The notes beneath the pieces were generated by a model, which saw only the letters and a list, made by a program, of their open reading frames with translations, was not told where the DNA came from and ran no database searches. 64,000 nt of DNA from Phyllosticta citribraziliensis (taxonomy: Eukaryota): contig NW_027117341.1 in NCBI RefSeq assembly GCF_038025025.1, forward strand, positions 2,108,001-2,172,000, given 5' to 3'. Below are positions 8,279 through 64,000 of this stretch, piece by piece. A program made the translations under genes and the position numbers. Each line of letters starts with the position of its first letter. Position 1 is the first letter of the stretch.

Positions 8279-8500
8279 GATGGCGGATATCCTGGGAGGA
8301 TTATTTGGCATTTTCCGAGTGGAAAATTGGGATGGGACTCTGGCGTTTGGGTTTGGTTCTGGACGTTCATGAGCGAGATATCATGATGCATGACTTGGAT
8401 AGACGCCTACGGGTATCATAAAATTCAACTGAGAATTCGGCCTTCTCTTGCTTTGCTCCCTCGTGTATTGCGCGCCGCCGTGTTTTTTCCCTCTTCCAGC

Positions 8501-24436: not shown

Positions 24437-24517
24437 TATGAGTCTCACCATTAAATCCTACGAATGGTATCTTTGAACCAGTGGTCTATATTGAACCTAG
24501 CCTTCATGGCTGTCTGC

Positions 24518-27853: not shown

Positions 27854-28944
27854 GTCTGATGATGCCAGGTAACATCAATAATATGTTTTTTCTCCAAGGC
27901 AGGTCTTGATGTCAAAAGTGTGAAATGGAGAAGTGCGAGGAAGGCAAAAGGCTAAGAGACTTAGAAAAAAGACGAGACTGAGCCTGAAATATGATCCATC
28001 GGGAATTTGGAGCGCCCAAGTGTCCGTGAGATTGCCATTGCCGTGGAGGCTTGTATCCTTGCCTGGTGTGACGAGTTTTTATTGGACCATGCAGTGCATT
28101 TTCAAAGCCGACATCGTTTCGTGACAGCTTCCTATCCGCGCAAGAATTACTATTAAATAAGTTCATGTCTCAACGGAGCCTTGAGAGCCTGTCTCGTCTA
28201 TATTTTCCTTTCTCGTTGGAAGGAAATGAGGAGACGGAAGTTTGTATCTCAGCAGAAGAAGTCCACCAGGCTGCAGAAAAGATTGCTGACTTGCACTGCT
28301 GTGTTGTGATCTGACTCCAGAGGCATCCGCGCGTCGACGTTGTACTGCCGTGGCGCTTGACTAGATTGGTGGCTTTCTGGGTGTGACGACCACGGACGAG
28401 GCTGAACTTTTAGCTCCAGCGGCGCAGGCTTCCTCTAATGTCAGCTAAGGTCGGATGTCGAATGAAGAATTGCGAGTACATAAGTGCCGAAGACGAGCGG
28501 AAAATTCTTTCGTGATGTCTTGAAACTCGACATTTTTCTCAGAACCCGTCATTCGCCTCAAAAGGCTGAACTTCTTGGGCGCCCATGGAGCCCTTGTTTA
28601 AGCATGCGATTTCTGCCTATCTGCACGAAATTTCAGCCTTCCCTTGTCGCACTGCAGGGCGATGTTGCATGGCCACAAAAGAGATGAGTGGCGACCTGAG
28701 GGTCCTTTTTTCTCAGCCTCGTCGCTCTTCGATCCAGAGCCTCGATTTAGGTTTTCCTCTGCGACTGGATCTGTGATGCCGTCGATCGCGGCGGCGAAGG
28801 TGATCGCTGGAACCAAGCTGCTTGGTAATTCTGAAGGTATTAAGAACAACTTCACAAAGAAGATTTCGAGCGGCGTTCACAGCTCCGTCGAAGCGTTCTC
28901 CAGCATGTTCAATTTCTCCCATCCGATAGCCAAGACCCTGCTCT

Positions 28945-39122: not shown

Positions 39123-40060
39123 GGTTGGTGTTGGTGGGGGAGGGGGGTGCGCTTTGCGACTCTTCTCTCTGTGCGCGCGCAGTGTGTTGTTCCTGTGGAT
39201 GTAATGTACGGAAGGGACATCAGCCCGTGTTATGGCTGGCTGGGAGTGCGCAACACTCAGGGATATAGATTGCTTCAATCGTTTCCATTGCTTCTATTTC
39301 TTGGTATATTCCTCCGCTGTTGCCGCCGCTCTGTCCATCTGTCCATCCATCTATCCATCTATCCGTCCATCCAGGCTTGCGTACATTTTCCGTTTGCCCC
39401 TTCACGCTCTCGCCCTTTGCGGGCGTGTAAGCTCCTGGCTGGCTGGCTGGCTGGCTGGTCGTCTCCGAACGCTCTCAAAACGTATGCCTCGTTGGTTTTC
39501 CGCCCGTGCGTTCTCCAGCTTTCCTTCCAGCTCGATGCGCCACACGCGACGCTACGCTATCCTACGCGGCCCATGTCGTGTGCCCTGCTCTAATATCCGC
39601 GCGTTTCTCTGCTATTCGAGAAAAATCGTTGTGTCGCCGCACGCCGAGTTCCGTCGACGCTCGACCGGAGCAGGCCAGCCGTTTCTGTCATGTCGAGGTG
39701 CCGCGGCCGTCGTGTCGATCGTGCCTCGGGCGAGACCGCCTGCCTGCCTGAGTTGGCATTTGCAACGACTGCCTACGCCGGTCGGTCCGCCGACGGAGTT
39801 GCGAGGGAGCAAACTTGTAACGGCGCGCTGCTCGTCGTTCCCGTCGCCTGTGATCCGGAAACCGCGTGAGGCGCGCGGACGAGGCGGTTTCAGGGCCCGA
39901 CGCGTTTGACTGCTGCCACGCAATGCTGGCACGGAGAACGTCTCGAGTCGGTTCAATTCGACGGATGACATGTTGAGGATGCCGGGCAGGGCGCAAACGA
40001 ACGGCGTCGGTGGGCTTTCTAGACCGAGTCTACTGCTCGTGTCGCGCAACAAGACCACGA

Positions 40061-41521
40061 TCAGCCAGGCAGGCGGTCGACGCGATGCGGCGAGCCGAGG
40101 AAGTTGTTTTCGGAGATGCAGTAGTCGTCGTTGCAGTGGCCCAGCTGGTCGAAGCAGCTGTGTTGATGGTCGAGGAGGTTGCACCCGAGGCCGCTGGGAA
40201 AGGTCAGCATTGCATTTATCACGGCAACAAGATGCGTTAGGACTCACGAGTTTGTCCTGACAAGCCAGCTCTCGCCCTTCTTCTGTAGCGCCCACGACTT
40301 CCCAATGACGTCCCACTCGGTCACGGTCGAGGCGCGGCGCTCGCGCACGTCGTGCAGCAGCTGCACCCATGCCGTCTTGACGTCGGCGGCGACGCAGCCC
40401 TCGATGCGCACAGTGGGAATGTCGACGACGTAGTCCTTGGCGGCCCACAGGATCAAGCCCGTCAACACTTTGTGGCAGCACGGCGCGAGCCAGCTGTCCA
40501 TGCGGAAGCCCGAGTAGTCTTCGCGGTGGCCGAGGCGCAGCTCGAGCACGCGCAGCGGCAGGCCGCGCAGGACTTCGGCGTCGGCGGGACCCCATGGCTG
40601 CGCGGCCGTGTATATCCACGCGCCGAAGAACTTGACGGCGCTCCACGTCGTGAGCTGCAGGCACAGCTTGGCCAGGGCCGTTGGCGCGACAGTGAGCGAC
40701 GCCGGCGGCGGGGGACGGCATTCGAGGAATCGGCGCAGCGTGTAGGCCGACTGGAAGCGGAACTCGCCATTGAGCCACAGGCGATGGGAAAACTCGGCCT
40801 TGACCTGCTTGCTGGTGAGGAGCAGCGAGAGGATGGGACCGCAGCCGTTGACGATGCGGCCGCGCCCGAACAGCTCGGCCCGCACGTGGGAGCCGGGATG
40901 GCGAAAGTCGCGCGACAGCAGCCCTGCCGTTCCCGCCGGTCCCAGATAGTTCCAGTTGTGCTCAAACTCGTACGGGTAACAAAAGGACACGACGTGGTCG
41001 TAGATGATGTTGCGCAGCTCTCCAGGGAGGCGCATTAGAGGGAAATGCTGTCCATTGGTGTCCCACTGCAGAGCTTGCTTCCACGACAGGGTTCCCGGTC
41101 CAAATACGGCGTCGGTGACAGGGGGGAGCGTGTCGAGGAAGTCGGAAAATGGGCGCCAGGTATCTGAGGTGCGGATTTCGACGGTGGCTTTGGACAGGCG
41201 GAGCAGCACAATGGCTTCCCATTTGCCTTCGTTTCTCGCGTAATCCGAGTGCTGACCGAGGCTGGAATCGCGCGACAGCTCAAAGTAGTCGCCGTCTTCG
41301 CCGTCCTCTGCGCGCAAGCAGTACTGGAGCGGGTGGAGCGAGATGTAGAGCGACTGATGGTGGCCATGGATGTTTGCGACATTTTGGACGGCGATGATTC
41401 TTTGCGCAGCGGCGAGGAGGACGTCGGGCGCGCCGCCCATGTCGGGACCTGGAGAAGTCTCAGTCCTGGAGTAGAAAGCCGAAGCTATCCACGACATTCT
41501 TGACCGAATCATTGTATACAT
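40061..41521 (-). CDS. Hypothetical protein with an F-box-like motif
   Basis: Long GC-biased ORF with FPLMRLPGELRNIIYDHV and LLLTSKQVKAEF. Probable 3' intron near 40195-40246. Start and stop positions uncertain. Confidence 0.65.
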
Positions 41522-43177
41522 GCTGAGGTGCGGCGGCACATGACCAGGGACGGGACGAACGGCACACGCGACGAGATATAAGGAACGGCAGTAGCCAAAA
41601 AGAGGAGCAAAACAGGCACGCAAGCTCAAAGACTTGGGAGAGGGCTAGAGGAAAGGGGAATTGATAGCGCAACATGGCATCGGATGGATGGAGCGCTAGG
41701 CAGTGGTTACGGCCTAGTCTCATGTCGAGCTGACAGCTAGATGACATGACGCAGTGGCAGGTGGTCTGGAGGAAGGCTTTGGAGCCGCATGACGCTCGTT
41801 TGGACGTACAATGAGACGGAGGCCAGTCGCGAAGGGTCTGGGGCGGTGCGGAGACCGAGGGCGAGGAGTAACTGAGAGAGGACTAGCAGGCCAAAGGAAG
41901 AAAGGGAGGGACGAGTCTAGGGAGGATAGTTGAGATGGCGAACCAAAACCAAGACTGGATAAGCTGGTGGATTCTCCAGCACAGGTGAAACGGTAGGCGA
42001 CAAGCGAGAGACTGGGCGGGCAGAGCTGGGCCCAAAAGTAATTAAGAGAGGTACAACAGCGAGTGGCATTGTATGCTTGTGTAGCGCTGGAGTCGGCACG
42101 GCTTGAGCCGCGCGATCCGCTGCCATTTGAGTCTGAAGGCGCAGACTTTGGGACGAGGACAGGAAAAGACTGGGTTGGGTTGGCAGTGTTTCGAAATTGG
42201 CTTGCGACTGGTGCGGAACGGGAGGCTTGTCGCTTGTCTCGTCCCTTGTGAGGCTCGAGAAGTAGAGTAGCGGGACGCGCGAAAAGAAAAGACGGGCGGC
42301 AGGAACAGGAAAGGAGCCAAAGGTTGTGGGGGATGCGAGACTAGAGAACCCGGACTTGGACTTGGGGAGACAAAAAAGAACTTGGGCCCGAGTCAAGCGG
42401 CAGACAGACTCTCGCTAGCCTGACTCGCCCTGCTGCCCTGGACCTGGACCGGACTGGCCGGACAACGACGGCTGCTCCAAATCTAAATACATACCCTCCC
42501 TTCTCGTCTCGACTGCTCCGTCAACGGATGCGCTGCCGTCTGTTGTCGACGTTGACCGTCTTGACCTCGTCGCCCACCTCTCTCGAACTCGACTCGGCCG
42601 TGTTCAAGCCGCCGACAACCCGACAGGAGCTGCCAATTGTCAGCAAACGCCATGACGTCGTCCACCGTGCTTCTCCCGCTCGCTCCAATCCACTCGATCC
42701 GCGGAAATGCGACGGCTGAAGACTCTGCACACAGAGATGCGACCACAGAAGTGAAGAAAGAGGTGGGCATGCTGGATATCAAAACGTCGCCAGTGGACGG
42801 TCGGCGTTGCGTCAACCTCAAGCGAATGTCGTGATCAGGACGCCGCAGGGGCACTGTCGAAAAACACCACACGCGTCTCGCCCACGCCAATCAAATCGGC
42901 CGCTCCGTCATTCGCCCTCGACCACTGCAGCCCTCGGTGGGCCGCAATGCCTCCCATGTCCGAGATCACCGTCGAAACGGCCACGGCATCCGGCTGGCGC
43001 TGTGGCAAGCACGCAATACCGTATCGGCCTCCCATCTTTCGTAGCCGCTGTCGTAGAAAAAAAAGAACCGACTTTTTGATTTCTTCGTTCAGTCCCCAGC
43101 TTTCTCGTGGTGGAACCCAGCCCGTCTGCCAGCATTCTCCCCCCGCCGGACACTAGCCGGAATCGTGAGCCTGCATC

Positions 43178-47561: not shown

Positions 47562-49214
47562 TCAGAACTGGTAGCGGTTGCAGCGGGCGACGCGGCGGGT
47601 GATGTCGCGGGCGGCCAGGCGCATCTGCAGCTGGCCCTCGTTGTACTCGCGCTTGAGCAGCAGCATCTCGCGCTTCTTGGCCTCGATGATGCGCTTGATG
47701 CGGTCCAGCTCGGCGTTCTGGCGCGGCGCGTCGGCGCGGCAGTTGGCCACGTACGGCGAGTGGTCGACGGCCCACTTCTCGTACCGCATCCAGTTCTTGT
47801 CGTCGACGGCCATGGCCGACGCGTGCAGCAGGTCCGTCGACCAGTACGCCGTGCCGCCGCCCGTCGACAGGAGGGCTTGGGACAGCGCCCCCATGACCAG
47901 GTCCGCCATGACGGCCTGCTGCGCCTCGAAGATGAGGAAGATGGGGAACTGCTTGGCGCGGAAGCCGCGCCCGGGGAACAGGGCGTTGGCGACGGCCTCG
48001 ACCAGGTTCATGAGGAACTTGGCCGACGAGTGGGCGTCGTTGGCCGCCTCGCGCGCCGCGTAGTTGACCGTGTAGCCCACGTCGACGAGCGGGAAGCGCA
48101 GCGGCTCGGCCCACTCGCTCGTCGGCGTCTTGTCGAGGCGCGAGTGCAGCTTCTGGCAAAACATTTCCAGCTCGGCGATGCGCGCCTCGGACGGCGTGGC
48201 GTAGGCGTTCTCGTACGACGCCAGGTACTTGCGGCGCCCGGCCTTGGACAGGTTCTCGTTCCACTTGTCCGGGCTCTTGTACGTGTCGACGCACAGGGCG
48301 AGCTCCCACTCGCTGGTGCGCGAGTAGCGGCGCAGGGCCTCGATCACGTCAAAGAGCTCGGTCGGGCTGGGGGACTGGTTCAGCTCGTCGACGAGGACGC
48401 GCTGGTAGATGCACGGCTGCGCGGCGGCCTGGGCTCGCAGGCGGCCGATGGCTTCGACGGTGGCCGAGTCGTGCTCGGCGTCCCAGGCCAGGTTGCCGTC
48501 GAGCAGGGCGTGGAGCACGCTGTTCTCGGTCGAGGTGAGAATGTCGTAGCAGATTTTGCTGACCGAGGGCACCTTTGAGCCTACGAGGGTGTCGCAGCCG
48601 CGGGCAATGTCGCGCAGCAGCAGCTCAATCAGCGGGTTGTAGCCCTGCTTGAGCGCGTTGACGTACTCGTCGCGCGTGCGGTCGCGCGGCTGGATGCTCT
48701 CTACGTGAAAGGGGGACTGCGGCCTGGTCGACTCGGCGCCGGCGTCTGCTGGCTCTGCTGCAGGTGGTGCGGCCGGGGCGGTGGATGCCACGACGTAGCG
48801 CACGCTGCTGGACTGCAGCTCGGCGTCGTCCTCCTGCTCCGTCTCGGCCAGCCGCGCCGAGTCGTGCTCCTCTGCTAACCGCATGCTGTACTCGAGCGTG
48901 TGGCAGGTCAGAACTGGGCACCATGTTAGTCTCGTCCGCAGGTAGGCCACGTGATTTGGGTGATTTGGCGGGTGATTTTGATCTTCAAGGGGCACGGTTT
49001 TTGATTTTTTTTTTTTTAACTCGAGAATTCGACGTGCGCGAGTGACTTGAGTTGAATGGTGAGTGGAGTACTGACCCTGGGCATCGTCGGCGTCAAAGTG
49101 GGCTGGTTGCAGGCGGATTCGCTTTGCCGAGTTGTCGGATTGCATCGAGGCCTGGGTAGACAGCGAGTCGGAGGACCGCTGGCGCGACGAGGAGAGCGAA
49201 GCCATGGCGGACAT
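47562..49214 (-). CDS. Conserved-looking hypothetical protein, possibly a degenerate GIY-YIG-like fold
   Basis: 550-codon ORF with strong GC3 bias from ~48870 to the stop. Probable in-frame intron 49075-48872. Motifs QPCIYQRVL, PLVDVGYT, FLMNLVEAV and GGG; C-terminal coiled coil. Confidence 0.7.
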   Translation of the reverse strand: MSAMASLSSSRQRSSDSLSTQASMQSDNSAKRIRLQPAHFDADDAQGQYSTHHSTQVTRARRILELKKKKSKTVPLEDQNHPPNHPNHVAYLRTRLTWCPVLTCHTLEYSMRLAEEHDSARLAETEQEDDAELQSSSVRYVVASTAPAAPPAAEPADAGAESTRPQSPFHVESIQPRDRTRDEYVNALKQGYNPLIELLLRDIARGCDTLVGSKVPSVSKICYDILTSTENSVLHALLDGNLAWDAEHDSATVEAIGRLRAQAAAQPCIYQRVLVDELNQSPSPTELFDVIEALRRYSRTSEWELALCVDTYKSPDKWNENLSKAGRRKYLASYENAYATPSEARIAELEMFCQKLHSRLDKTPTSEWAEPLRFPLVDVGYTVNYAAREAANDAHSSAKFLMNLVEAVANALFPGRGFRAKQFPIFLIFEAQQAVMADLVMGALSQALLSTGGGTAYWSTDLLHASAMAVDDKNWMRYEKWAVDHSPYVANCRADAPRQNAELDRIKRIIEAKKREMLLLKREYNEGQLQMRLAARDITRRVARCNRYQF

Positions 49215-52200
49215 TCAGGCCAGATCCGGCGGGTTTGGGAGAGGGTTGAAGCAGACGGCTGCAGAGGTGGATAGGAGAGGATGAGATGAGGTGGATGGGT
49301 GGGTGGGATGCCGAGACGAGGTGGTGGGATGCGGCGGTTGGGATGAGGGTTCGGGGGGCGTCTGGCGTTGAAGGGAGGGATATGGATAGAATGTCGTGAG
49401 AGAGAGACGGGAAGACAAGGGCGGAGTGAAGGGACCGACGTGGACGGGGTTTGTATGTCAATGGTGGTGAGGGCTGCCCTGGTGGAGGTGGAGGTGGAGC
49501 TTCCTTTGCGTAAGCTCGCGGGGCCCGTGGCCAGAAGAGAGCAGCGCGCCGCCCCGAGTCAGTCAGACTGCCTTGCCTGCATTGTAGTACCCTTCACCAC
49601 CACGGCACCACCCTCTGTCCCCACCGCTACATACTATGCTACCCTCGACGGGAGTCCTGAATTTCAGACGCTGCCGTCTTTGTTTGACCGGACTTATCTT
49701 CTCCTCGTCTGTCGTCTCCCCGCATCTGCTGTCTACTGTCTCCTGCGTCCTGTCCTGTCCATACTCGCTGATCCGCATGACGGCTCCATTCCTTGCGGGC
49801 CCAGACCACCAGTGAGTGTATCGCGAGAAGAGAGTGTCGGATGGCACCGAATGGCTATTGGACACGTTGAGCGAGCGGCGTTGTATATACAACAAACTCG
49901 CCCGTCTGTTTGCTCCATCACCTTTCAAGGTTATGTGGATGGTCGACCATCATCTGTCCATCCATCCCTATCCTCCATGCCTCCCTATCAGTGCATCTGG
50001 CTCTTATCAGCGTGCATGCAGTGGCAGTTTTAGGGCGTCCCCTTTGTAGTCATGTGCAGAGTGATCTTCGACGACTACCACCAAACACCGAGCCCTCCAT
50101 CGGCTTTGTCCTGCTTGTCGGCGGCAGAGGCAGACGAGTTGGGTTGAGCATTTGACGGGCACAGGCAGCGTTGGTATTGTCCGCGGTCAAAGAAGAAGTA
50201 CACAAACAAAATGCCCTCGACTGTGCCTCGACTGCATTCCCCCCGTCGAAGCTTGGCATGGCGGCCGTCGTCCGATGCCTTGGCGGCCTTGCGTTGGAGC
50301 AGACGCAGTAAAGAGTTACAGACTGTCGCTCGGCTAGGTACCGGTAGGTATGAGTATCGTCGGTCGTCATCATCAAACGAAACGCGGCATGCGTCATCGC
50401 TGCGACCAAAATAAGCCTCCAAATGTCCGTCGTCGTCGTCGAGGTGCGTGCGACTGCAGTGGGTGCGTGCAATAACAATGCGACCGACCGACCAGACCAG
50501 CACCTATGCCTCCTCCCTGCAGGGGGATCGCAGCTCTCCGTCTCCACCCGCTACTCCACCACCACCACCACCACCACCACTCCCTCTCTCCTCCCAGTTG
50601 AGTGCCCGTCAACGAAGACGACCACGACGCCCTTCATCATTCTCCCAGCCTGCCCTGGCTCTCGATGCGCTTCCCCGAAACAAGCCCCCACGTCGCCTAC
50701 CACCTCGTCGTCGCTCCCTGTCCTGTCTGCCGCGACCCAAAGCACCACCGCCCTCTCGATCCCTCCTCGTGTCGCCCTCCGCGTCTCTTCTCCATCCCCA
50801 TCTCGACCCACGCCGTCCACGGTCGAGACCGTCCGCTGTCCGTCGTCTCCAGCGGCACGAGGAGCACAGTCTGCGCATGTCCTCCACCGCCATGCTTGTC
50901 TCCATGCTTTCACTCACGAACTCCTCGCTTAGCCATGTATAGTACATACCTAGCCGCGCCGCGCCCTCAAACTTCCCTCCCTCTCTCAATCCGTCATCTT
51001 TTACGTACCGCGTACCGCCGCCGCTCACTCTGCTATACCACAACCAGCCGCTCTCCGCTCCCGTCAGCCTCAGCCTCGGATCCAGACAATTCCAGCCTTG
51101 AAAGCTTTTCTTCCTGATCGCCACCGTCCGCCCCATCCATCCATGTGGCGCCGTCAGTCCGTCTCCCTCGTCTGGCGGCTCTGCGGTTGGTAGGTACTCG
51201 CCGCCAATGCGATCGCGATGCCCAGCCAGCCACCCGCCCGCTCGCACGCGCCCGCTCCCTCTGCGTAACTGATCGCCGTTGATTGGCCTGGCCTGCCCGA
51301 GCACTGACGGGTGGTCGGTCGGTCGGACACGAGCACCAAGGTCGGAGCGGAGCGGAGCGGGCGGCGTAGGGCAGGAGACAACGGGCTGTTGGAGACGTTT
51401 GCGCGCACAGTTTCCTCGCGGACTGAGTGCAGATGAGGTGAGGGTTGGACGGTGGATTGTGCGGTGGAGGGAAAAGGTCTCCTGAGCGCTGGAGACGGCG
51501 AATGTCAGTATCTCAGGGCTTGTAGGTAGGTAGGCGCGTCTTTTACTCAGACACGACGAGTAGGCCATCAGACTTCATGCCATGTAGTCCAGTCCATATG
51601 TAGACTCCCTATCTTGTACCAGGTACCAGTCGGTAGGACCATACACACAACCCACCGCCCACACCACTTACCCATGGACTCTTTCACCGCAGCACCCACC
51701 TCAGCGTCGGCGTGAACTCAGATATGCCCTGCCCTGCCCGAGCACGTCAAGACAATCGAGTCCATCCCGAGTCCGTCACAGCTGACCTCCAGCCAGCCAT
51801 CCCCAGCTCCGCACAAAGCAAGCGCACTGTCTTTCCCCATTCTCTTCATCCCCTGCCTCACCGCACGAGATGTGCGCCTCACCGCACGGCCTCGCCGGTC
51901 ACTGCCAAAACAGAAACCGCCTCACGTGTCTTCTCCCTCCACTACAGCATAGCACACAGTCCAAACGCTCCCACAGCTCCCGCGTATGTAGGTATCTTCC
52001 TCAGCCGATTCGATCTGCATCCGCATCTGCAATATACCATCTACACACAAAAACCTTGCGAAACGGATACGCAAGTACTCATGACAGACAAGAACAGCGC
52101 GTTGGTCGCGTACAAGCACGCTTCTAAGGCCCCCTTCATCAATTCTTTAACACAGGGAAAACAAGTCGTCCCCTTGTAGTCATGGACTGGATGAAAAGAA

Positions 52201-52346
52201 AAGAGTACCTGCTGCAATCGTTTTCGGTTTTAAAAGGAAAACAGAGTTCAAGACGGGGCGAAGACGGGAGCTCCGGAAATAAAGCATTTACATAAACTCA
52301 TGAGCGAGAGAGATGTCCGAGTGCGAGGGCCTTGGGAGCGGTGGGT

Positions 52347-52376
52347 GGATGGATGGATGGATGGATGGATGGATGG
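52347..52376 (+). repeat. (GGAT)n microsatellite
   Basis: About seven tandem GGAT units. Other short tandem repeats: (GTC)n at ~14359-14386 and (CCA)n at ~50556-50580. Confidence 0.9.
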
Positions 52377-52576
52377 ACGGCAGTAAGAGGCACTGAGAAG
52401 ACGACGCTGAAAAATACAGGTGCTGCAGTAGTGAGTACTCCAGTCTTCAGTACACATCTATCCATGCAAGAGGACAGCAGAACCAGCGGTGGATCATGGC
52501 ACCACCATGGTTGCTCTAGATCCCCTGACGCTCTGGCAAGAGTATAAATTTTATCAGTGAGCAGAGTTTTCAAAAT

Positions 52577-52699
52577 GGCCGGTTGGCGCAATGGTAGCGC
52601 GCACCCCTCCTATCATGTGACCCGTAAATTATATATTACGGTACATTACGTGCTTAGTCAGCCAGGGTGAGGCTGTGCGTTCGAGTCGCACATCGGTCG
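52577..52699 (+). tRNA. tRNA-Arg(CCT) with a 51-nt intron
   Basis: Acceptor stem GGCCGGT/ATCGGTC; D-arm GCGC-AATGGTA-GCGC; anticodon stem CACCC/GGGTG with CCT at 52609-52611; intron 52613-52663 at the canonical 37/38 position; T-arm GTGCG-TTCGAGT-CGCAC; downstream T-runs as Pol III terminator. Confidence 0.93.
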
Positions 52700-53253
52700 A
52701 ATTCTTTTCGTTTTTTAACGCCTCTGAAATTTTTTTTTTTCGTTCTTTTTTGGTCGGGAGGGACAGGGGGCATGCAGAGGGGATTTGGAAGGGATGGTGA
52801 GGGGGCGGGGTGCGTGGGGATGCCTGTTGTCGAAAGGAACCGGTCCTTTTTGGGGGGGTTTTCTTTGGTGGAGGGGGCTCGGCTATGAGAGGTCGGACAG
52901 CTACCTTAGCGAGGTATGTGGTGCATGCCGGGCGAGGGAAGGAAACCCCCTTTTCTTTTACCTTTGCACCAGCAGGCGACAGTCACGACTTGCGGTACAA
53001 GTAACGAGAACAGCATAGACATTCAAGAGCCTGGCATGCAAGGGAAGCAATCGATTCCTACTACCACGAAACTGACACACCACCTCCCTCCTCCCGCACA
53101 AATACCTGCTGGCGCCACCATGCAGGAAGCTTTCAAGAGCAAACCTCCACCAGACTGACAAGAGAAAATGCCCGAAGAGTCGACGTACAGGGAGCATCCG
53201 TGAGCAACCGTCAACCGCACCGATCAAGACAAAAACCAGTACACCCACCAGCT

Positions 53254-55527
53254 TCAACCTCTGTTCTCCAGCTCGTGGAGTCGGCGGCGTTTGGGCTGCT
53301 GCTCGTCGATGTCGTCGATCAACGACTTTTTTCCGCCGAACCCAAGCAGGCCTTGGAGGTAGTGTGGGATACCAAGCGGGCCGGGCTTTCCTACTTCGAT
53401 GCACGGCGGAAGATCGGAGTCGAGAGAGTCGTTGCCAAGTTCGATTCCCGGTCCCTCCAGTAGTACATGCGGTCCGCCACGGAAGAGATCGTGGCCCGAG
53501 TTCGTTTTCAATGGCAATGAATGTGGAAGCTCAGGCGGCTCGTGGACGTATTCGATTCCCACATCCGCGACGACGCCCTTAACCAGTCGTCCTCCGGGTT
53601 CTTTGGCCAATTGTTCATGAACGCGTTGAACCCTTCGGCTAGAGGTGTTCGTGAATTCAGCGTCGGACCAACCGTCTTCGGCCTTACGCCTCTCGTGAAG
53701 TGGGTCGCTCGTCGGTCGATCTCTGATGTGTTTGACGAGATTTGGCAGTGAGCTCTATCCCTTCTTGTCCTGTGGACAATAAGGGCAGCGCCAAAGACCC
53801 TCTGGGTTGGCCTTATGGAGCTTGGTTTGACGGCGGTCCCAAATCGCGCGGCGACTGTGGAACTGGGTTTCCTGATGGTCCAATAGCTTAGCTTGCCTGT
53901 CCCACACGTGCTTCTTATACTCTTCACTGACAGTCTCGTCGGCCAGACAAAGGGCGCATCTCTGGTCTCCGTCGGTCCAAACACCTCGCGGTCCCGCCAG
54001 CGAGTTGTTGAGGGCATGTCCATGAAAGTCTTGGCCAAATCCCTGAACGGGACTTTGGGCTGGCCCAGCTCGCCGTCTTCGTCTTGGTCGACGTTGAACC
54101 GAAGTGTAGAGACTCCCGAACGGCAAGCAGCGTCCTCTAAATCTTCGTCTCGACCAAGCACTCCGTCGTCATCGTCGTTGGCGGCGTCGACCGTCTGTTG
54201 ATTTTCGTCGTTTCGGTCGTCGGCTGCGACGACATCGGCAGCGCGTTCAAAGATGGACTTAGGGAAAAGACTGGCCTTGGCTGCGCCGACGCGGTCGAGA
54301 AAATCGGCATGCGTCATGGTGGCCTTTTGCATCTCCCTCTCCTGAGCCTCGAGCTCTTTTCTGGCCTTCTATTGTATCCTCCTACGATACGTCTTGAGCT
54401 CTGCGGGCGTGGCGTCGCAAGGGTAGTCTGGGTCGGCGTTCATGAGCACATTGGTGTACGATGCCACGGCCGCTCCGGGTGTCCCCTGAATTTCATGATT
54501 CTCCAGGGATTCATGGGCTAAAGGAGCCCAACGTCGAACAAGATCGTCAGAATGAGCGCCAGCTTGTATTACCTTCTCCAGCATGACAGCCGGAAAGTGA
54601 TGACTGTCTCGGAGGAGGCCAAGCACGGGGGAGCAAAAGAGATGATGACACCCGGACCTGCGACAGCAACCAAGGAGCATTCCTCATCTGTTGGAGACGA
54701 GGCTTGGAAGCAGTCGTTGACTGTCGCAGTTGCGCCCAAGGAGCATTCGTCCGCCGACACGGATGGGGCCAGATAGTGTTACTTTTTTCCGGGTCTTGGA
54801 CATGCTCTGGCTTGATGGTGATCCACGTCATGGGCTCGTTGCGAGCTTAGGATCCAGAGAAGAAAGTCCCGAGTCGTACGGCTAGGATTCAGCTGAGGCA
54901 CCAGGCAAGCTGGTGTTGTTCTGAATTTTCGATGCAGATGTTTTCGTACATCGCATAACCAGTGAGCTGCCTCAACTCCTCTAGACCGAGGTACGTCTTT
55001 TTGGAGTTGCCGTGGCTCACGCTCGGGTACAGCCGCTGCAATTTGTGCATGTGCTTGGTGAGCTTTAGGTGCATAAGTCGGTACGGCGGTGGTACCCAGG
55101 TGCGCTGGCAAACGACGTGCTTTGTCCAGAAGCACAACGCCTCGCGGTACTGGACCAGGGAACCATACTTGATGTGGTCGCCTGGAACTCCCGAGCGTGG
55201 GACGGCTTTCAGGTGGACAAAGCCAAGGAACTTTCTGAGTCTCTAAAATAGCGTATCCCAGTCCCTTGGGGATGCCGCTTCCATCAGCTCCTCATGAGAG
55301 CTGTGTCGAAAATCCACTCGAAGTAGGGTGCCTCCTAGGAAGTTCAAGTACGTTTCGAGGATTCGGTCCTGGCGCCTCTGGCGCGATTGGGACTGTGTGC
55401 GGAACGCGTCGGCCGGAGCTTCGACAGTTTTAAGCTGGTCCAAGAGATCTAGGAGCTCTTGATCATCGTCTTTATACTTGTCCATTTCAGCTGCCTGTTC
55501 GCGGACCGACTTCTTTTTGGAGGGCAT
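53254..55527 (-). pseudogene. Degenerate tyrosine-recombinase-like gene (Starship-captain/Crypton-like architecture) with a C-terminal Zn-finger-like region
   Basis: One frame from ATG 55527 reads through stops at 55243, 54889 and 54847: KTYLGLEELRQL..EQHQLAWCLS*ILAVRLGT..MTW..DPEK. It resumes at ~54623 (LGLLRDS), has a stop at 54369 and a frameshift near 54010, then CALCLADETV..LLDHQETQFH and CPYC..LVKH, ending at 53254. Recombinase identity is inferred from motif memory only. Confidence 0.55.
54624..54790. mobile_element. Truncated relative of the 29503-29684 MITE
   Basis: Left end CACGGGGGAGCAAAAGA. 33-bp units at 54664, 54697 and 54730 contain AAGGAGCATTC and GGAAGCAGTCGTT(G/C)A(C/T)TGTCGC, as in the first copy. 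The right TIR is absent. Confidence 0.65.
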
Positions 55528-55764
55528 ATTGGCCGATCCAATGCGTACGGGACCAGGGCCGTTCGACGGTGATGAGTCTCCAGGCCGCCCTTGAGAATTG
55601 ATGCGTCTGACAGTAATGGCCCTTGGGGAAAAGGCGGTCGTTTGGCGTTACCGGAGGCCCTCGCTGTCAGAGTATACAGAGACTTCTGGCGCGGCGATGA
55701 GCGTTGTAGTCGGAGACGGGGGTCTTCTGGCTGACAATTTCCCAGCGGTCGGCGTAAACGAGTT

Positions 55765-56300
55765 CAATCGAGGTCTGGAGATCGGTCAGTACATGTGGCA
55801 CCAAGAGTCTGTTGGTCGGGTAATTCTGTACCAACCGGCGTCCGTCGTGGGCTGACCTCGTCCTCTGGTGCCTGGTCCAGCGAAGATGAGTAGGCCTTGG
55901 GGTCCTAGCTGTTGGCGGGCGAGCAAGAGGTGCTCTTGTCGCCACGGGATTGAATTGGTCGAAAATCTGGAGGTCGATCGGAATTGGGTTACACTAGAGT
56001 CCCGTTGGGCGAGTAGAAGCTTACCAAGCGGCGTGATCAAGCTGTTCAGCAGCCGGTACTTGGCGCCTGGGCCGGCGAAGGCGAGCAGTCTTGAGAGTCC
56101 TGGCTCTCGGCGGCTTGCAACGCTTGATCGAGAATCTGGAGGTCGATCAGCACTGGGCTACACCAAAAGCCCTGTGGAGCGAGTAGAAGCGTACAACACG
56201 GCGTGGTCAAGATTTTAAATGGCCAGTCCTTCGGCGCCTGGGCCGTGGAAGATGAGCAGGCTTCAGAGGTCTGGCTGTCGGCGGCTTTGGAGGTGCTTGT
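55765..56300. repeat. Degenerate ~170-190-bp tandem repeat upstream of the recombinase-like gene
   Basis: AATCTGGAGGTCGATC at 55964 and 56133 (variant at ~55774); GG(C/T)GCCTGG..GAAG..GAG at 55865, 56059 and 56229; GCGAGTAGAAGC occurs twice. Confidence 0.7.
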
Positions 56301-57415
56301 AGCGTCCAAAGACCAGAGGTCCGGCGAAGAGACGCGACCGACAGTGGTGGTGCGGAAGCAGTAGAGGTGGTGAGGTGGTGAGAGGTGGAGGAGGAAGAGG
56401 ATGGGGGAGAGTTGGGGCAGAGTTTGGGAAGAGATGGGGCTGCGGTGGGTTGGGGAGTTGCAGGATGAGGAAGTCGCACTCGCACCACCCACGAGACTTC
56501 CCCTTCTGGTGACTGCCCAGCACCCGGCGCGCTGTGACTCTCTCTTAAGCTCTCTTCTCACTCCTCTCTCTCTTCCCAGACGTCTACTTCTCCAACTCTT
56601 CTCAACCTCACCCAAAGCCCAGTCCCAGCTCTTCAGAGTGCACCCTACTCTGCCGCTTGAGCCTCGTCGTCTCCATCACCTCACCTCCAGCCGTCCTCAG
56701 CTTCGTCGGCCGTCTTTCCTGGTCCTTCAGGCCCATCGTTGCCCGCGAGCCTAATTGTCGTCGCCGGTTAAGCTCAACGGCCTCCACTCAAGCCTTCTCG
56801 CCGCCGCCGCAAACGGCTCATCCTTGAAGCCCTTCAGAGCACAAGTCTTCTGGCATCGCGGACGCAGGTGAATCAGCCGCATCTCTCGGTATGTCGCTCA
56901 CCAGGCCGTGCCACTGAAGCATCCGTCGCTGATCAAGTCCAGATTCGTCCTTGAAGGTCGCTGCCCTCAACCAAGCTCCATATCTTTCAAGCTGCAGACA
57001 GCCAGGCCTTAACCTCAAGCACGATCATCGTTACCGGCTCAGGTGAAGCGGCCAAATCTACCAGTCTGTCAACCACAAGATCTTGCCACCAAGGCATCCG
57101 CCGCTGGAAACGACCAGATTCGTCCTTCGAGGTCACCATTCACAAGTACCATCTCTTCCAAGCGTCGGCGCCGTCCCGGCCTCAGCATTCAGCAAACCAA
57201 ACACCAGCCCTCAAAGCCCACCGCAACCCTCTCAAGCCGCCGTCCGCGCCGTCCTGGCCTAAGCAGCCGGCCAACAACACACCCTCACAGCCCGTCGCGC
57301 TCAAGCAACAAGCTCACCCAGGTCGGTCTACTCAAGGACTCGTCGGCGCTAAACGCTCCCTTCTCTGATTCAAAAATTTTGGTCCACGCCCAAAGGACTT
57401 TTCAAGAAAGCAACC

Positions 57416-57736
57416 ATGGCCAATGAGACACCAGAAGAGCGCCAGACGAGCCAGACCATGACAAGCTCGACGATCTTAGGCGGCGCGGCAGCCTCGGCCA
57501 GTCCATCCCGAGACTGGCTCATGTTCAAGGACCCGAGCAAGTTGTCGGCGTCAGATGTCGTCATTCAGAACAGTCTGGGCGTTCTAGCCTTGAAAATGGA
57601 CAAACTTGCCGAGAATCAGGCCAGACTCGGAGACTTGCTCCAACAAATGCTGGAGAAGCAGATTATCAAGGACGACTCGGGCGAGGAAGAAGACGATGAC
57701 AAAGGGGAGGAAAAGGCGGATGTTCGTCGTGCTTAG
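57416..57736 (+). CDS. Small hypothetical protein (106 aa) with coiled-coil-like segment and acidic tail
   Basis: ATG in good context (ACCATGG), protein-like composition, divergent from the recombinase-like gene. No family recognised. Confidence 0.4.
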   Translation: MANETPEERQTSQTMTSSTILGGAAASASPSRDWLMFKDPSKLSASDVVIQNSLGVLALKMDKLAENQARLGDLLQQMLEKQIIKDDSGEEEDDDKGEEKADVRRA

Positions 57737-58917
57737 GTCGGCGTCTGGTTTCTGGTCGGAGACGGGAGGCGGCCGATGCGGTCCTTCAACAGCCGACGTG
57801 GGCGTATGACGGTCCCCCTTGGCTCTCCGATATGGCAGATCAACTCTGCGGTTTACGGTCGAATGGGTCGGTCAATCTTGCTACTTCAGTCTTCATGGTC
57901 AGCCAACATTCAGGTCTCGAAACAGTTAGCCGAATCGGTAGCTAGTACCGTCGGACGGAGAGGAGTGATCCGGCGGCTTGCCCGTAGCGCACAATGCAAT
58001 TGATTCCACTGCGTCTTCTTCATGCATTATTGCGTCTTGCTTGGTCCGTTCAAAGGCAAGGTGCCGCGCGGCGCAGACGGCCTATGTGGATTTGGTCGGT
58101 CGGCGTGCGAGGAAGTTGGAATGTTGCTGTAGGTACGTTACGACCAACCGTCAGTCACCTTTCCATTGCACTACTTGGGTCCGGCCTCAGCGCGCACGTA
58201 CGTACCTTTGTCCGTGACGACCGGCCGTTGCCCAACGGCATCTACGTGCCGAGGGCAGGTCGGCACGCCATGGTGCCCACGGATCGGCTTCTACTTTGGC
58301 CGTTCTCTACAGCATGTCGGTTGGTCCAAGAAGCGTGTGGTACCTGGTTCCTGGTCATAGACGCGAGGGGTTCGGCGCTGAAGCGTCCTGGTCGGTCCTG
58401 TGGCAATGTGGCCCGTCAGTCAGCCAGTCGGTCGGCGTCAACGGCTGGTTAGTCCTGCCTGGCTGGTCTTGGTGCCGACTGGTCCTTTGCGGCTTACCGG
58501 CGGCAGGCGGAGGATACATGAGTAGTATGCGGCGTGTTGACCTACAGTACAGTAAAATACGTATGTGTACAGCGCAATGGAACAGGACGAGGGGGATCCT
58601 ATGACTTTCTCCCCGTTGGGCCAAAAGTTTCATATTAGCAGTCCTGTCTAGAAGTAAGGTAGTGCGGTCAAGCAACGCAAATGCAGCAAGACTAAAGAAG
58701 AGAGCTATTCGGCCAGTCCATATTTTTTTCTTTCAGCTGAGGCCAGCTGCTTCACGGTCAGAAAATCCCCAGGCCGCAATCTCTATGGAAAACTGTCGGG
58801 CCAAAGCAACGCCCCATACTTTTCTACCAGTCCGTCTTCAATGTCAGCCAATTCCAGCCTTCTGTCGCGCTGTGGAGTTTGTCGGTCCTTCGTCGCTATC
58901 GGGTTACGCTTTTGGGA

Positions 58918-59700
58918 GGGGTCCGTCGTGCTGTCAAAACCAAGGGGAGAAGCAAATGTCGGTCGCAGGGAAGGCTTGTGTGAAAATCAATTGAAGACGT
59001 CCGTCGTAGAACTTTTGTGGGGACCAGTCAAAGAAGGAGGTGTCCGTCGTAAACCTTTGGCGCAGCCTTGAACACTGGTCGTGTGCGGTGTTCAGGAATG
59101 GAGGCCGTGTAAAGCTCTGTCGTCGTCCTAGTTCTGCGGCTGTCGGCGTTGTTGCAACCGCTGGCAAGATTCGTCCGTCGTGCTGTCAAGACCAGAGGAC
59201 CAGTTGTTGCAGCAGGTGGCCGTCCAAAGCAACTGCATGTGTCCGCCGTAAAAATGTGGGCGCAAATTCGGGAACTGGCTGCGTGCGGCAATCAGAAACC
59301 GAGGCCGTGTGACGGCTCCTCGTCGTCGTACTCATGGGGCCATCAGCGTTGTCGCAACCGCTGGCAAAAGGGGTCCGTCGTGCTGTCAAGACCAAGGGAA
59401 AAGGCAGATGTCGGTTGTAAAGAAAGGATTTTCGAAAACCATTCGCAAAGGAGACCAATCGTTGGGGCAAGAGGCAGTCCAAAGCAAATGCAGGTGTCTG
59501 CCGTAAACTCTCCAAGCAACCTGGGATAATGCGGTTTCGTGGTTGGCGTGCAACGCCTCCTCGTCGTAAAAGTCGTCATCGTAGTCCAAGGAGTAAGAAA
59601 GTGCAGATGTCGGTCGTAAAATTTTGGCGCGGCCTTGGATGCTGGTTGCGTGCGGCGTTCAGAAATGGAGGCCGTGTGACACACCGTCGTCGTCGTAGCT
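58918..59700. repeat. Degenerate ~200-250-bp tandem repeat
   Basis: GTCCGTCGTGCTGTCAA at ~58921, 59173 and 59373; GAGGCCGTGT three times; GCAACCGCTGGCAA twice; TGTC(C/G)G..GTAAA several times. Confidence 0.75.
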
Positions 59701-59742
59701 GCGCAGCTTTCAGTCCTGTCATAACTGCACTGAGCTGGCGTT

Positions 59743-60334
59743 TCAATTGCTTTGCTTCAATCGTTTCGACGGACGCTCCGAGGCCAGGATCTGGCCTTGC
59801 TTAACAATGACCTTGCTTTCTGGACGGACGTCGGGCGTTTGATCCTCAATCTCCCGGGAGTCGGCGTCATCTTCGAGCCACTCCGGCCAAGTGTCGTTTG
59901 GAAGACGATAGCGGAGCCAACGAGCGAAGATGACATTGTTCCGTGGATGATACTTCGCCTTTAATGAGTCGACGAAGAACAGGATGCAGTCCGGGTCGAA
60001 GGTTCGGAGCCACCAGCGATTATATGCGGTGGTATCTTCATCGTCATCTTTCTCCACAGACTCATCATTGAGCTTTGGGCTTCCAACAGAATTTTCATCA
60101 GCTTTACGCTCAACCTCCTGCTTAAATAGGACGCTATTGTGGATGTTAGGGTGAAGGACATTCGCGTACCACAAGTCGACGACTTGCTGAAGGGTGCAAT
60201 TTCGGAGCATGTAGAAGAGATCAGCGCATTGCTTGTCCGTAATTGTGTCCTTGAATTTGACCGCTACCTCCAGCTTGGCCTCTCCATCCTGGCGCTGCTT
60301 GTAGACAGGCAAGGCTCTTTTATCCGTGGACATG
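59743..60334 (-). CDS. Hypothetical protein (~196 aa from MSTDKRALP)
   Basis: Open frame with protein-like composition, an acidic patch and a basic C-terminus (RPSKRLKQ, NLS-like). No family recognised. Confidence 0.45.
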
Positions 60335-63300
60335 ATGGCAATCTCAGCGACGAGTAGCGTGGAAGTGCAGGCGGTTGGGCTTCCTCGGAGCAGGGTAACG
60401 GCGCAGATGTTTAGAGCAACCAGGTCGTTGGTGCAAGGCGGATAGGAGGCGTCAGTGTTCAGAGTGGTCAATCGACGGCGGAAGTTGTGTTCGAGGCGAG
60501 ATTCTCGCCCAGGGCCAGATCTCGATACAAAACGAACACGAGGTCGATGGAGAGCGAGCCGAAGGGTAGGCTGTTGGGCGCTGTTGGACAAGTTCGGCGT
60601 GAGGCAAAGCGATCCGCCCGGCTGTCGGAGCTCGACGTTGGCGGTGCGGTTGCTGTTGCTGTTGCTTGAGCGGCGACCGGAGACCGGCGAGCGGCCAACA
60701 GAAGAAACGTTGCTCTTGGCTGATCGTACAGCGACCTGGAAGAGCGAGATTCCGGAAGCCAGCTGGTGTGTTGGTCTGTGGGTTGAGAGTTGGAGGTTGA
60801 GGGTTGAGGTGGATGCAGGCGGTGGTTGAGGCTGCGGCCAGGACGCGAGGTGGGTGGTGCCAGATCACAAGGACGCGCTGCGCTCCGACTTGAATTCGAA
60901 AAGACAAAAGGAGAATGGATTTATTGCATTTGCCGATTTATCATTGCTTTGGCCAGCCACGAGCTCAGCCAGGCTAGTCCTTCGACTGCTACGTCGTGCC
61001 TCGCGATGGAGGGAAAAGGCACCTCCTGGTACCTTCAGGCCTCTCGGGTGTTGGACAGAAAAGATCTTGTCGACGGCTTCGGCCATCTGCTCGTGAGAGC
61101 TGGTCGCTTTTCGCATGCTCATGACCTACCTGCGCATCTTGCTAAGTTGGCGACGCCCAGTCGAAACGGTCTACGGTCGGGCCGCGCGCATACTGCTCGC
61201 TTCTCGGGGATTCTTTGGGTCCTTTTCAGCTTCGCTTGCCTTTGCCAGGTTGCACATGTTGCACCAAGCGCTTTGAATGGCAGACCGATGTCTCGTGGAC
61301 ATACGGGGAAGAGCTACGAGGATGTCCTGCCAGTAATCGATTGGCGTGAGGAGCACGGAAAGATCTGGTAGATTGTTGCAATCGTGGCCGTCAGTATTGG
61401 ACTGGGCGAGGGTGATTGGTGACGGAGTATTGTCGAATGTGCCTCGTGGGAGCAGTCGGAGGTAGAAACAACCCCAAGCAGATGTTGTCGCCGCGGGAGT
61501 TTTTGTTCCGGCCTGCCGTTTGCGCGTAACATTCGAAGGCCGATTCTGGGGCGCATCGCTGCTCCTCATCCTCGCCATCGAGATCATCCTTTACGTCCTC
61601 GTTGCTTGAGTCGCCGTATGCGGTACCGTCGGCGCCGTTGCTGCGCCAACTTCGGCGGCGGCGTTTAGATCGAATTCGTAGCGGCTCTCGTGAGTTCGTC
61701 CCCAAAAGAGCTCTTCGTCCTAGAACAATTAGCGCGAACTGTGAAGCTTCTCCCAGGGTGCCCAAATGCGGGGCTCAACACCAACAACCACTCGCCAGCT
61801 CGTTCTGTCCATCTTTGAGAGCTCAATTGGATGCTTCTTGTCCTCCGATCCCTTGGAAGCTTGGAAGCTTCTTGCCTGCCCTTTCCATACCGTATCTGCC
61901 GCACCTTTTGGCCCGAAGCTCTGGGTCGTCGAGGCGGACTCAGCATGCTCTTGGCGCAGGGTGCAATGGAAAGCGGGTCTTCAGATATGCCGTAAATGGA
62001 AGGATCTAGAAGTAGCGGATGGGCAAAGAGACGGGCTGTTTTTTTGTCGAGGGATGGAGTGTTTTGAAGTGGTGCGGTGTGTTTTTCCACTTCTGGCATA
62101 CTCCAGGTGCGACGGCGCAGTGTAGGTTCCGGTCTTTGGAAAAGTGACCATCGTCGAAGATGGGCGACGAAGATGGGCGAAGTAAGATATCTACCTAGCG
62201 AACGAGTCTAATGATTAGTACACGATGAGTCTGTGCTCGAATTGGCGATGATGTACTAGTGGTGGGACTGCGGCGTGAATCTCGCAATAGGTGATCCCAT
62301 GCTCGTGAGCACTCTGGATGAAGGCTTCTGGACGGTCTTTGGCTCTTGGATTCTTGTCGTGACAGTTTCGACGATGGTGTTTGGCTTTGAGTGATGAAAA
62401 CAATTGATGGACGGGATGTCGTGGGGAGGTCTGGTGTGCCCTGCGACCGGGCCGGATGGTGGTGCAGGTGTTGCAGCACCGGCATGACGTCATAGGACAG
62501 GCCGCCGCTGAGGTGTGGCCGGGCACTCGGACCCTCCCGACCTGCCGACCTCAACACCAACGCCTTCTCCATCCTTGGAACCAGCAACACTATCGCCATT
62601 GCAAATTCCGCGTGGAAAGCCTTGCCATCATGGTCTCGCCAGAGAAAGGGGATGCTCGCCGACTCCGCATTCACCTCGTGGCTCCGAGGATCGGACGGCG
62701 TTTGATGGGACCGGGAATTCGACGATCAACACCTTCGCTCAACCCTCGCACGCATATCGCGTGTCTTTCTTGAGTAAACCTGTGCTCGGGATTTGCACAT
62801 GACTGTAATCGCTCGATCTTCACTCGCTAGTCACTGAGTTTCCGTTTTCTAGTGGCCTGAACATCTCCGATTCGATTCGACGCCAGACGAGCCAGGAAGA
62901 ACAGTCGACCCCACTGGACAGGCACGGGCACTTTGAGAATGCTAGCTCCATTTCAGCATTCCATTGTATCAGATGTCGCATACCCAGCGTGGCTCTCTCA
63001 AAATGACGTCGAATTACCGTCTCGCCGGTTCACCAAATACGTCCCCGGAGATCAATTGCACATTGTCTAGTCAGCTCATCGCCGCCCGTTGACCCCCGGA
63101 TTTGCGCGCAAGCGACCGGATTTCTGGGACCCAGCAGCCGTGTGGGAGCCGCAGGAAGCTTTCTCACACAAATTGCTTCCTTCTGGCCTCCCTGATGGTG
63201 ATCGTGAAGGCCAGAAAGATACTCCACGCAGGGTTTGTTGTCCAAGCGGCAAATCTGGAACCGATTACGCCAAGAGTTTGTTTTGATGTGAATCACGACA

Positions 63301-64000
63301 TGTTCGATCTGGGCCCGCCCGAAAGCACTCCCTAAGCGTACCAGCTGCCGTTTTGGCCGACTAAAGAGCATCTGAGACGACCGCCTAAGAATATTGCCGT
63401 TGTTTGCGCCGACCGACTGCCTGCAGACGTTCAAAGGGATACAGGGCCGTTGTGCCTCGGTCGGTTGACTTGCGGAACCCTATTCCACAAGCGGCAAAGC
63501 AACATCTGTCAGATTGTGGGGTCGTGTTTTGCATGCAGACAACAATTTGCCATTTTCACGACGACATTGTCATTTTTCGGTCGAGGCAGCCGTCGAGGCA
63601 GCCACCGAGCAGCACCTCTTCCACGGAACCTTGGTCGAGGTCAGCAACGGCAGTGTTGAAGCAGTGTAAGCTCGCTGAAACAGATGCACTACTCGCGGGC
63701 TAACCATTAGACGTGACCAGAAACGGCCTCTCCAATCCAGGGAGCAGTAGTCGAATCAGTCCCAGCGACGACGTCAACGCTCAGGCCGACATGTGCTGCC
63801 TTGCAACATATGTTAAAAGCATTCCCCACCTTCAATCTCATTCCAGTCAGCGAGCCATTGCCAAGTCCGCCAGGGGCGGTTGTGCTCCTCATCCATTGCT
63901 CCATTCTCCAACCCCGCCATGGCCCTTCCAATTGGTCAGCCAATGACGCAGCAACAGACATTTCAACAGACGGGGACCTTTGTTCAACCGAACTTCATGT

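Follow-up and report, generated by a model that had tools for sequence, protein, structure and literature searches.

Starships are giant transposons headed by a captain, a tyrosine recombinase of the DUF3435 family that keeps a conserved position and orientation at the front of tens to hundreds of kilobases (kb) of cargo (PMC9156397, PMC11162782). Their recombinases form a clade separate from those of the Cryptons (PMC9156397), of which CryptonF carries a recombinase with a GCR1_C domain and has 6-bp terminal direct repeats (PMC3212892). Among 222 curated Starship insertion sites, 26% are AT-rich and 23% lie in 5S rDNA; tRNAscan was also run on these sites, and the main text of that study gives no tRNA result (PMC11162782). 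A full-text literature search turned up nothing that links Starship, DUF3435 or Crypton elements to tRNA genes. The paper on the Tangerine Starship (PMC13486527) has no mention of tRNA, target site, rDNA or insertion site, and PMC13004909 mentions tRNA in its methods only. Here we analyzed a 64-kb stretch of Phyllosticta citribraziliensis DNA (contig NW_027117341.1, positions 2,108,001 to 2,172,000; hereafter the window), in which the relic of a DUF3435-family recombinase gene lies beside a tRNA-Arg gene. Our overall reading, which we hold with a probability of about 0.6, is that of a dead, compact DUF3435 element beside this tRNA gene in ordinary gene-poor fungal DNA.

The relic lies on the minus strand, starting with an ATG at 55527 and closing with a terminal TGA at 53254-53256 (Table 1). 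Its terminal stop lies 554 bp from the 3' end of the tRNA gene, and its transcription is directed towards the tRNA. Homology to one protein family is spread over three reading frames along the relic, namely 55527-54811, 54824-54018 (shifted by one base) and 54051-53254 (the first frame again). The N-terminal part preserves the first catalytic Arg box, as AVRLGT. Only 221 bp are left of the catalytic core, with no recognizable Lys hairpin, RR box, His or Tyr, so that of the catalytic Arg-Lys-(His)-Arg-His/Trp-Tyr set the first Arg box alone is kept. A TAG falls inside the region of the second Cys pair in the C-terminal part. Judged from its sequence, the recombinase copy in the window is dead, with most of the catalytic core lost, six internal stops (55243 TAG, 54889 TGA, 54847 TAA, 54684 TGA, 54369 TAG and 53755 TAG) and two frameshifts, near 54800 and 54030.

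Because the relic has no Pfam match of its own, its family was assigned through its homologues. We prepared a read-through protein, P0001, in which the stops are written as X. A word-indexed protein search with P0001 gave no match, and an exhaustive HMMER search of 1.84 billion representatives returned 186 proteins at E ≤ 1e-3, 84 at 1e-10 and 13 at 1e-30. The best match was P0002, a short public protein discussed below; the other strong matches are 685-970 amino acids (aa) long and cover both the N- and the C-terminal parts. DUF3435 was detected in 7 of 16 full-length homologues at E ≤ 0.01 (5 of 16 above the Pfam cut-off), with Phage_integrase weakly present in 2 of 16. Across 32 aligned full-length homologues at E ≤ 1e-3, DUF3435 (PF11917) was found in 20, Phage_integrase in one and GCR1_C in none, and a separate search gave PF11917 as a precomputed domain in 15 of 21 relatives. 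The named relatives come from Zymoseptoria, Aureobasidium, Cercospora, Teratosphaeriaceae, Meristemomyces, Oleoguttula and Fusarium, all as "hypothetical protein".

The catalytic residues R217, K261, R383/R384, H405 and Y416 (P0007 numbering) are invariant in eight close homologues and invariant or nearly so across the homologue alignments. The AlphaFold model of the homologue P0007 has a mean pLDDT (predicted local distance difference test) of 80.7 and a predicted template modeling (TM) score of 0.77. A Foldseek search of the PDB with this model gave 29 matches at E ≤ 1e-3; among the matches listed, all were Cre or the Cre-derived Tre, with a target TM score of up to 0.70. Lambda Int, XerA/XerH, integron integrase, Flp and Tn1549 Int followed with weaker E-values. 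A profile search of PDB sequences gave no match. The two-domain Cre-like fold is thus a feature of the model of a homologue, P0007. On the evidence of these homologues and of the predicted homologue fold, we identify the relic as the pseudogene of a DUF3435-type tyrosine recombinase, a member of the protein family of the Starship captains and a relative of the Crypton recombinases.

A public 173-aa protein, the P0002 mentioned above, is 100% identical to the N-terminal part of the relic and is evidently a gene model of the same assembly. In it, ...RILET runs straight on into KFLGF..., the TAG at 55243 having been treated as intronic and passed over; the model is apparently an artefact of annotating a pseudogene. 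Repeat-induced point mutation (RIP) was considered as the cause of the decay and set aside, the RIP indices being unremarkable: TpA/ApT is 0.38-0.81 and (CpA+TpG)/(ApC+GpT) is 1.03-1.38 throughout the window. The usual thresholds for these indices are 0.89 and 1.03.

We also compared the window with four sequencing runs, the best of which contains 0.24 of the sampled window words. One metagenome run (X1) yielded contigs identical to parts of the window, together with two contigs that are 95-98% identical to the relic, at 53908-54515 (32 differences, 4 gaps) and 55105-55523 (8 differences). Among the differences from the relic are one that falls on the first in-frame stop and a one-base change in length close to the second frameshift. 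A second, somewhat less decayed copy of the relic therefore exists elsewhere, as expected for a multi-copy family.

With introns allowed, aragorn reported exactly one tRNA in the window, tRNA-Arg(CCT) at 52576-52700 (+), whose intron (~52613-52663) sits at the canonical 37/38 position. Rfam RF00005, run on a 501-nt stretch, matched 52577-52699 over the full model (1-71) with 46.6 bits (gathering threshold 29) and an E-value of 6.9e-9. Default ARAGORN and a whole-window Rfam scan at gathering thresholds did not report this gene, because of its long intron. We read the T-runs directly 3' of it as a putative RNA polymerase III (Pol III) terminator, and the gene has the appearance of a working one. 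Loose ends at 52612 in the metagenome run were considered as a junction and rejected; they are the tRNA genes of other organisms with the same 5' half. An earlier interpretation made from the letters of the window alone (the sequence-only reading) had described a tRNA-Arg, about 555 bp from its 3' end a recombinase-like relic reading towards it, and a likely tyrosine recombinase behind that relic. All of this holds.

The genomic surroundings of the relatives provided insight into the size of the element. A profile of eight homologues led to 18 metagenome loci with homologues of 29-53% identity, among which L018 repeats the sequence of L017, and L014 shares part of its sequence with L008. No relatives were found in prokaryote genomes or viral contigs. 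Five metagenome loci offer 8-22 kb of context (L001, L004, L009, L011 and L013), and each shows a lone recombinase gene with ordinary cellular genes close by (Table 1). In L004 and L011, cellular genes flank both sides and limit the insert to at most ~6.6 kb and ~4.6 kb, respectively. Genes for DUF3723, ferric-reductase or patatin proteins were not seen in these five loci. In footprint, the relatives match a Crypton-sized element and are unlike a giant Starship. Since the homologues are lone genes near ordinary cellular genes, the 56-64 kb stretch of the window need not belong to the relic. An all-against-all DNA comparison of the loci found no near-identical paralogues from which element ends could be read. 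Several of the metagenome homologues are interrupted by one in-frame stop or by a change of frame (L002 at 3434/3435, L011 at 11311/11312, L006 at ~1525); these could be pseudogenes or introns.

Aragorn with introns, run over 115 kb of these loci, reported three tRNAs, each lying downstream of the recombinase gene and sharing its strand. Eight independent loci are informative in that they extend 300 nt or more past the gene (L001, L004, L008, L009, L011, L013, L016 and L017). An Rfam-verified tRNA lies within 1.3 kb of the recombinase 3' end in two of the eight (three with the unverified L004 call), and a downstream tRNA is absent in five: L001, L008 (788 nt beyond the gene), L009, L013 and L016. 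Upstream or elsewhere in the 111.6 kb of independent loci, no tRNA was found. The chance that both verified tRNAs fall within the 10.2 kb lying downstream at ≤1.3 kb, out of 111.6 kb, is 0.0084, or 0.0008 with L004. The tRNA types (Arg, Glu, Ser) and the flanking genes all differ, and these are therefore independent events. The L004 call has good acceptor, D and T arms and adjoins a fragmented recombinase copy; it may be a disrupted or unusual tRNA gene. Together these observations suggest tRNA-proximal insertion or persistence of the recombinase family, and the recurrent tRNA neighbor in relatives is a modest lead.

The geometry of these loci bears on how the element arrived. The element is on the 5' side of the tRNA in the related loci versus the 3' side in the window, and no duplicated tRNA fragment was found in L004, L011 or L017 (chance-level matches). 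This argues against integration into the tRNA 3' end, the prokaryote-style route that the sequence-only reading had invoked. That reading had also proposed a check of tRNA adjacency and orientation in homologues, and the recurrence was seen in part: the 3' end of the gene faces a tRNA in two of the eight loci, but the tRNA strand differs from that in the window.

A stronger version of this association would be a dothideomycete DUF3435 subfamily whose members are compact transposons without cargo and insert next to tRNA genes in a fixed polarity, the recombinase 3' end towards the tRNA, actively targeting Pol III gene neighborhoods and possibly tethered to Pol III; the relic would then be one such insertion, now decayed. 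With the window included, a tRNA lies no more than 1.3 kb from the gene 3' end in three Rfam-verified cases (four with L004), and both the lack of tRNAs elsewhere in the loci and the variety of tRNA types and flanking genes are in keeping with such targeting. Ty1, Ty3 and the Dictyostelium TRE elements are known to be tethered to the Pol III machinery. Among other DUF3435 elements, the targeting of a different Pol III gene, 5S rDNA, has arisen repeatedly (PMC11162782). We nevertheless consider active targeting unlikely: the sample is small (2 of 8, p ~0.008), the hypothesis was derived from the window itself, the distances vary between ~290 and 810 nt (1.2 kb for L004), the tRNA strand is inconstant, and five of the eight informative loci have no downstream tRNA. 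Survivorship in gene-free tRNA flanks would, moreover, look the same.

In the reading we prefer, that of a dead compact element, the locus would hold a selfish element whose only gene was a DUF3435-family tyrosine recombinase, now dead and 554 bp downstream of the tRNA. If the element behaved as Cryptons and Starships do, an intact copy would leave its site and insert again through site-specific recombination between short core sequences. The window copy can no longer do so, given its stops, its frameshifts and a catalytic core that is mostly lost. The repeats and orphan open reading frames (ORFs) of 55.6-64 kb, like the 3.4 kb left of the tRNA, would be ordinary gene-poor DNA with no tie to the relic. 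The site of the relic probably reflects a tendency of the family to land or survive in gene-free tRNA flanks, and not integration into the tRNA gene.

The sequence-only reading had instead proposed a derelict integrative island of at least 11 kb that had inserted at the tRNA 3' end and whose integrase, on the edge nearest the tRNA, reads outward. The relic is indeed the first feature past the 3' end of the tRNA, and the window to the right of it has no domain-bearing gene. A codon log-odds scan trained on six confident genes found the last strong coding ORF on the left at 47565-49214, none at 49.2-53 kb, a weak signal over the relic, a moderate one right of the tRNA at 57.4-57.7 kb (+) and 59.7-60.3 kb (-), and nothing at 60.5-64 kb. 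None of 110 stop-to-stop ORFs of at least 70 aa at 49.2-64 kb (relic excluded) matched Pfam at E ≤ 0.001. The lack of recognizable genes right of the tRNA was correctly reported by the sequence-only reading, with two moderately coding ORFs remaining, as were its degenerate tandem repeats, of which we found three arrays. Their copies are 60-89% alike (60-89% also in the ~200-bp array), and the arrays are local, unrelated to one another and to the rest of the window.

What found no support is the tRNA as a border, and with it the island. The gene-poor stretch begins 3.4 kb to the left of the tRNA, not at the tRNA, and this left part is as empty as the right side. GC content is 0.53-0.58 right of the tRNA versus 0.47-0.66 elsewhere, and neither it nor the RIP indices change at the tRNA. 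The longest match to the tRNA elsewhere in the 64-kb window is 12 nt, which is chance level, so no duplicated tRNA fragment is present. The window holds no second recombinase fragment (one weak high-scoring segment pair of 218 falls outside the relic), and 49.2-64 kb holds no Starship accessory genes, none of the 110 ORFs having any Pfam family. The homologues, for their part, are lone genes on the 5' side of the tRNA in their loci. We therefore regard an island entered at the tRNA as improbable. The undescribed class suggested by the sequence-only reading is likewise unsupported.

A sequencing-run record with letters between its two sides, joining 47948 to 56387, was considered as an empty site and rejected; both sides are purine-rich simple sequence, and the criteria for a joint failed. 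The comparison of the sequencing runs with the window gave no accepted joint.

A degraded classical Starship with an inward-reading captain would place its 5' end to the right of 55527, near the 170-bp repeats, and run leftwards, with the tRNA, a major facilitator superfamily (MFS) transporter and a NACHT NOD-like receptor (NLR) as cargo. Captain position and orientation are conserved in Starships (PMC9156397), and a low-GC segment contains an NLR gene (24518-26299), a type common among Starship accessory genes. This is the sole NLR of the window, 27 kb away from the relic. The homologues, however, have essential or ordinary genes directly downstream (MCM4 and DnaJ in L009, SNF2 in L001), and genes for DUF3723, ferric-reductase and patatin proteins were not seen among the window ORFs scanned. 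The actin, Fes1 and DEAH helicase genes at 5-13 kb are core genes, and there is no boundary evidence. We find a classical Starship hard to credit at this locus.

A recombinase-derived host gene, not mobile, decayed in this lineage and only by coincidence next to a tRNA, would suit the naming of all named homologues as hypothetical proteins and the repeated domestication of Cryptons (PMC3212892), but it is very improbable, since the catalytic residues of the homologues are invariant, as they would be in an active recombinase, the copies lie in differing contexts without shared synteny, many are independently broken, and a second copy 95-98% identical to the relic is present in the metagenome run. 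This combination is typical of a multi-copy selfish family.

Several points weigh against the reading of a dead compact element in ordinary DNA. Neither the pieces of the relic nor the read-through P0001 matched Pfam, even at E ≤ 10. Gene-poor DNA of at least 11 kb exceeds the other gaps in the window (3-6 kb), and an unrecognized larger entity may lie within it. Many related copies are also broken, no active element of the subfamily was seen, and the mobility of the window copy is inferred. As to the tRNA, the association depends on eight informative loci, and the L004 call is without Rfam confirmation (a T-arm match alone). The tRNA is on the opposite strand from the recombinase gene in the window and on the same strand in the loci, which weakens a precise targeting model.

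Table 1. Features of the window and of the related metagenome loci. Positions are window coordinates unless a locus is named.
Feature	Position	Strand	Description
Nearest strong coding ORF left of the tRNA	47565-49214	-	550 aa, coding score 0.44, no Pfam domain
Stretch left of the tRNA without coding signal or domains	49215-52576		3.4 kb
tRNA-Arg(CCU) gene with 51-nt intron	52577-52700	+	aragorn with introns allowed; Rfam RF00005
T-runs directly 3' of the tRNA	52701-52750	+	read from the sequence
DUF3435-family tyrosine recombinase pseudogene (relic)	53254-55527	-	tblastn, homologues, fold of a homologue
Relic, Cys/His-rich C-terminal part (CxxC ... CPYC)	53254-54051	-	40% identity to P0003 residues 414-635
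Relic, catalytic-core remnant	54590-54810	-	221 bp versus ~188 codons in homologues
Relic, N-terminal (core-binding-like) part	54811-55527	-	36% identity to P0007 residues 3-239 (tblastn)
Degenerate tandem repeat, 170-bp unit	55867-56287		~2.5 copies, just upstream of the relic start
Degenerate tandem repeat, ~175-bp unit	56865-57163		2 copies
105-aa ORF	57416-57733	+	moderate coding score, no Pfam domain
Degenerate tandem array, ~200-bp unit	58917-59766		4-5 copies
196-aa annotated orphan ORF	59746-60333	-	moderate coding score; sole database match is itself (P0152)
tRNA-Glu(TTC)	L011	recombinase strand	811 nt past end of protein homology; Rfam 52.2 bits
tRNA-Ser(GCT)	L017	recombinase strand	287 nt past end of protein homology; Rfam 59.4 bits
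Called tRNA-Leu(TAA), 64-nt intron	L004 7824-7975	recombinase strand	~1200 nt downstream; aragorn alone
Neighbors in L004	L004		HIR1-like gene 5-1745; AMP-binding enzyme 8349-10358; then DAHP synthase, BRCT protein
Neighbors in L011	L011		PA-RING protein 6597-8303 upstream; tRNA 811 nt downstream
Neighbors in L001	L001		intact 709-aa ORF, then SNF2 helicase at 0.8 kb
Neighbors in L013	L013		PHD-finger gene at 0.5 kb
Neighbors in L009	L009		DnaJ and MCM4 within 6 kb

The remainder of the window is ordinary in character. Its Pfam-matched ORFs include actin (5086-6153, -), Fes1, a DEAH-box helicase (9744-13241, +) and the NACHT/NPHP3_N NLR (24518-26299, -), along with a Sde182-like hydrolase, an MFS transporter and an AA9 (auxiliary activity family 9) enzyme. 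These protein genes and the intron-bearing tRNA identify the window as fungal nuclear DNA, a eukaryotic setting. It is ascomycete DNA, and the taxa of the homologues make a dothideomycete source probable. The ORFs at 47565-49214 (-), 40247-41644 (-) and 38096-39119 (+) have strong coding scores and are without a Pfam domain; they are probably lineage-specific or fast-evolving genes.

Repeats are also present at several places in the window. The low-GC segment (0.47-0.50) at 24000-28000 contains the NLR gene, and adjoining this gene are a perfect 34-nt inverted repeat (24088-24121 / 24192-24225) and direct repeats at 24109-24266, which may be a small transposon remnant. At 2850-3900 there is an interleaved cluster of direct and inverted repeats (families D3, D7, D8, D11 and I2) without coding signal, with a unit spacing of ~250-560 bp and an identity of 63-90%. 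A (TGGA)9 microsatellite lies at 52342-52377, 200 bp 5' of the tRNA, and akin CCAT/GGAT-rich runs occur at 14833, 38603-38658 and 39334-39385.

As found, the locus is a matter of annotation, in which a dead DUF3435 copy was rescued in the gene model P0002 by a stop-skipping intron. If the tRNA association were true, the Starship recombinase superfamily would include small, cargo-less members with a Pol III-gene niche beyond 5S rDNA, and this would bear on the origin of giant cargo carriers from Crypton-sized ancestors and on the frequency of safe-haven targeting. A subfamily that integrates beside tRNA genes would further be the first eukaryotic tyrosine-recombinase DNA transposon lineage specialized on tRNA genes, and would occupy a second, independent Pol III-gene niche in the superfamily besides 5S rDNA.

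Compared with known systems, the window resembles the prokaryotic islands and integrative and conjugative elements found at tRNA 3' ends in having an integrase-type gene beside the 3' end of a tRNA. It differs from them in its eukaryotic nuclear setting and in the lack of a duplicated tRNA 3' fragment and of a compositional island; in the relatives, the element is moreover 5' of the tRNA. For Ty and TRE elements, the neighborhood of tRNA genes serves as a safe haven. With transposons that target Pol III genes (Ty1/Ty3, Dictyostelium TRE and fish Dada), the relic family shares a recurrent position next to tRNA genes. Those transposons use integrases, reverse transcriptases or DDE transposases and follow tight distance rules, whereas the relic family has a tyrosine recombinase, loose distances (~0.3-1.2 kb) and weak statistics. 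The Dada DNA transposons insert into tRNA and snRNA genes (PMC8869645).

The likeness to Starship captains, the DUF3435 recombinases of Pezizomycotina, lies in the protein. DUF3435/PF11917 is present in 20 of the 32 homologues, with a Cre-like fold and conserved catalytic residues; the homologues measure ~700-950 aa, against a median of 812 aa for predicted Starship recombinases (PMC11162782); and pseudogenized copies are common in both. The difference lies in the element: no cargo is visible, the relatives are lone genes, and the placement of a captain at the 5' end of a large element is not seen. Starships that target 5S rDNA insert inside the 5S gene, whereas here the Pol III gene is intact and downstream of the recombinase gene. 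CryptonF differs in its GCR1_C domain, found in none of the 32 homologues, whose C-terminus is Cys/His-rich instead. The likeness to CryptonF lies in architecture: it too is compact, has a tyrosine recombinase as its sole gene and does not require terminal inverted repeats (PMC3212892), and the relatives of the relic, at no more than ~3-6.6 kb, share its footprint.

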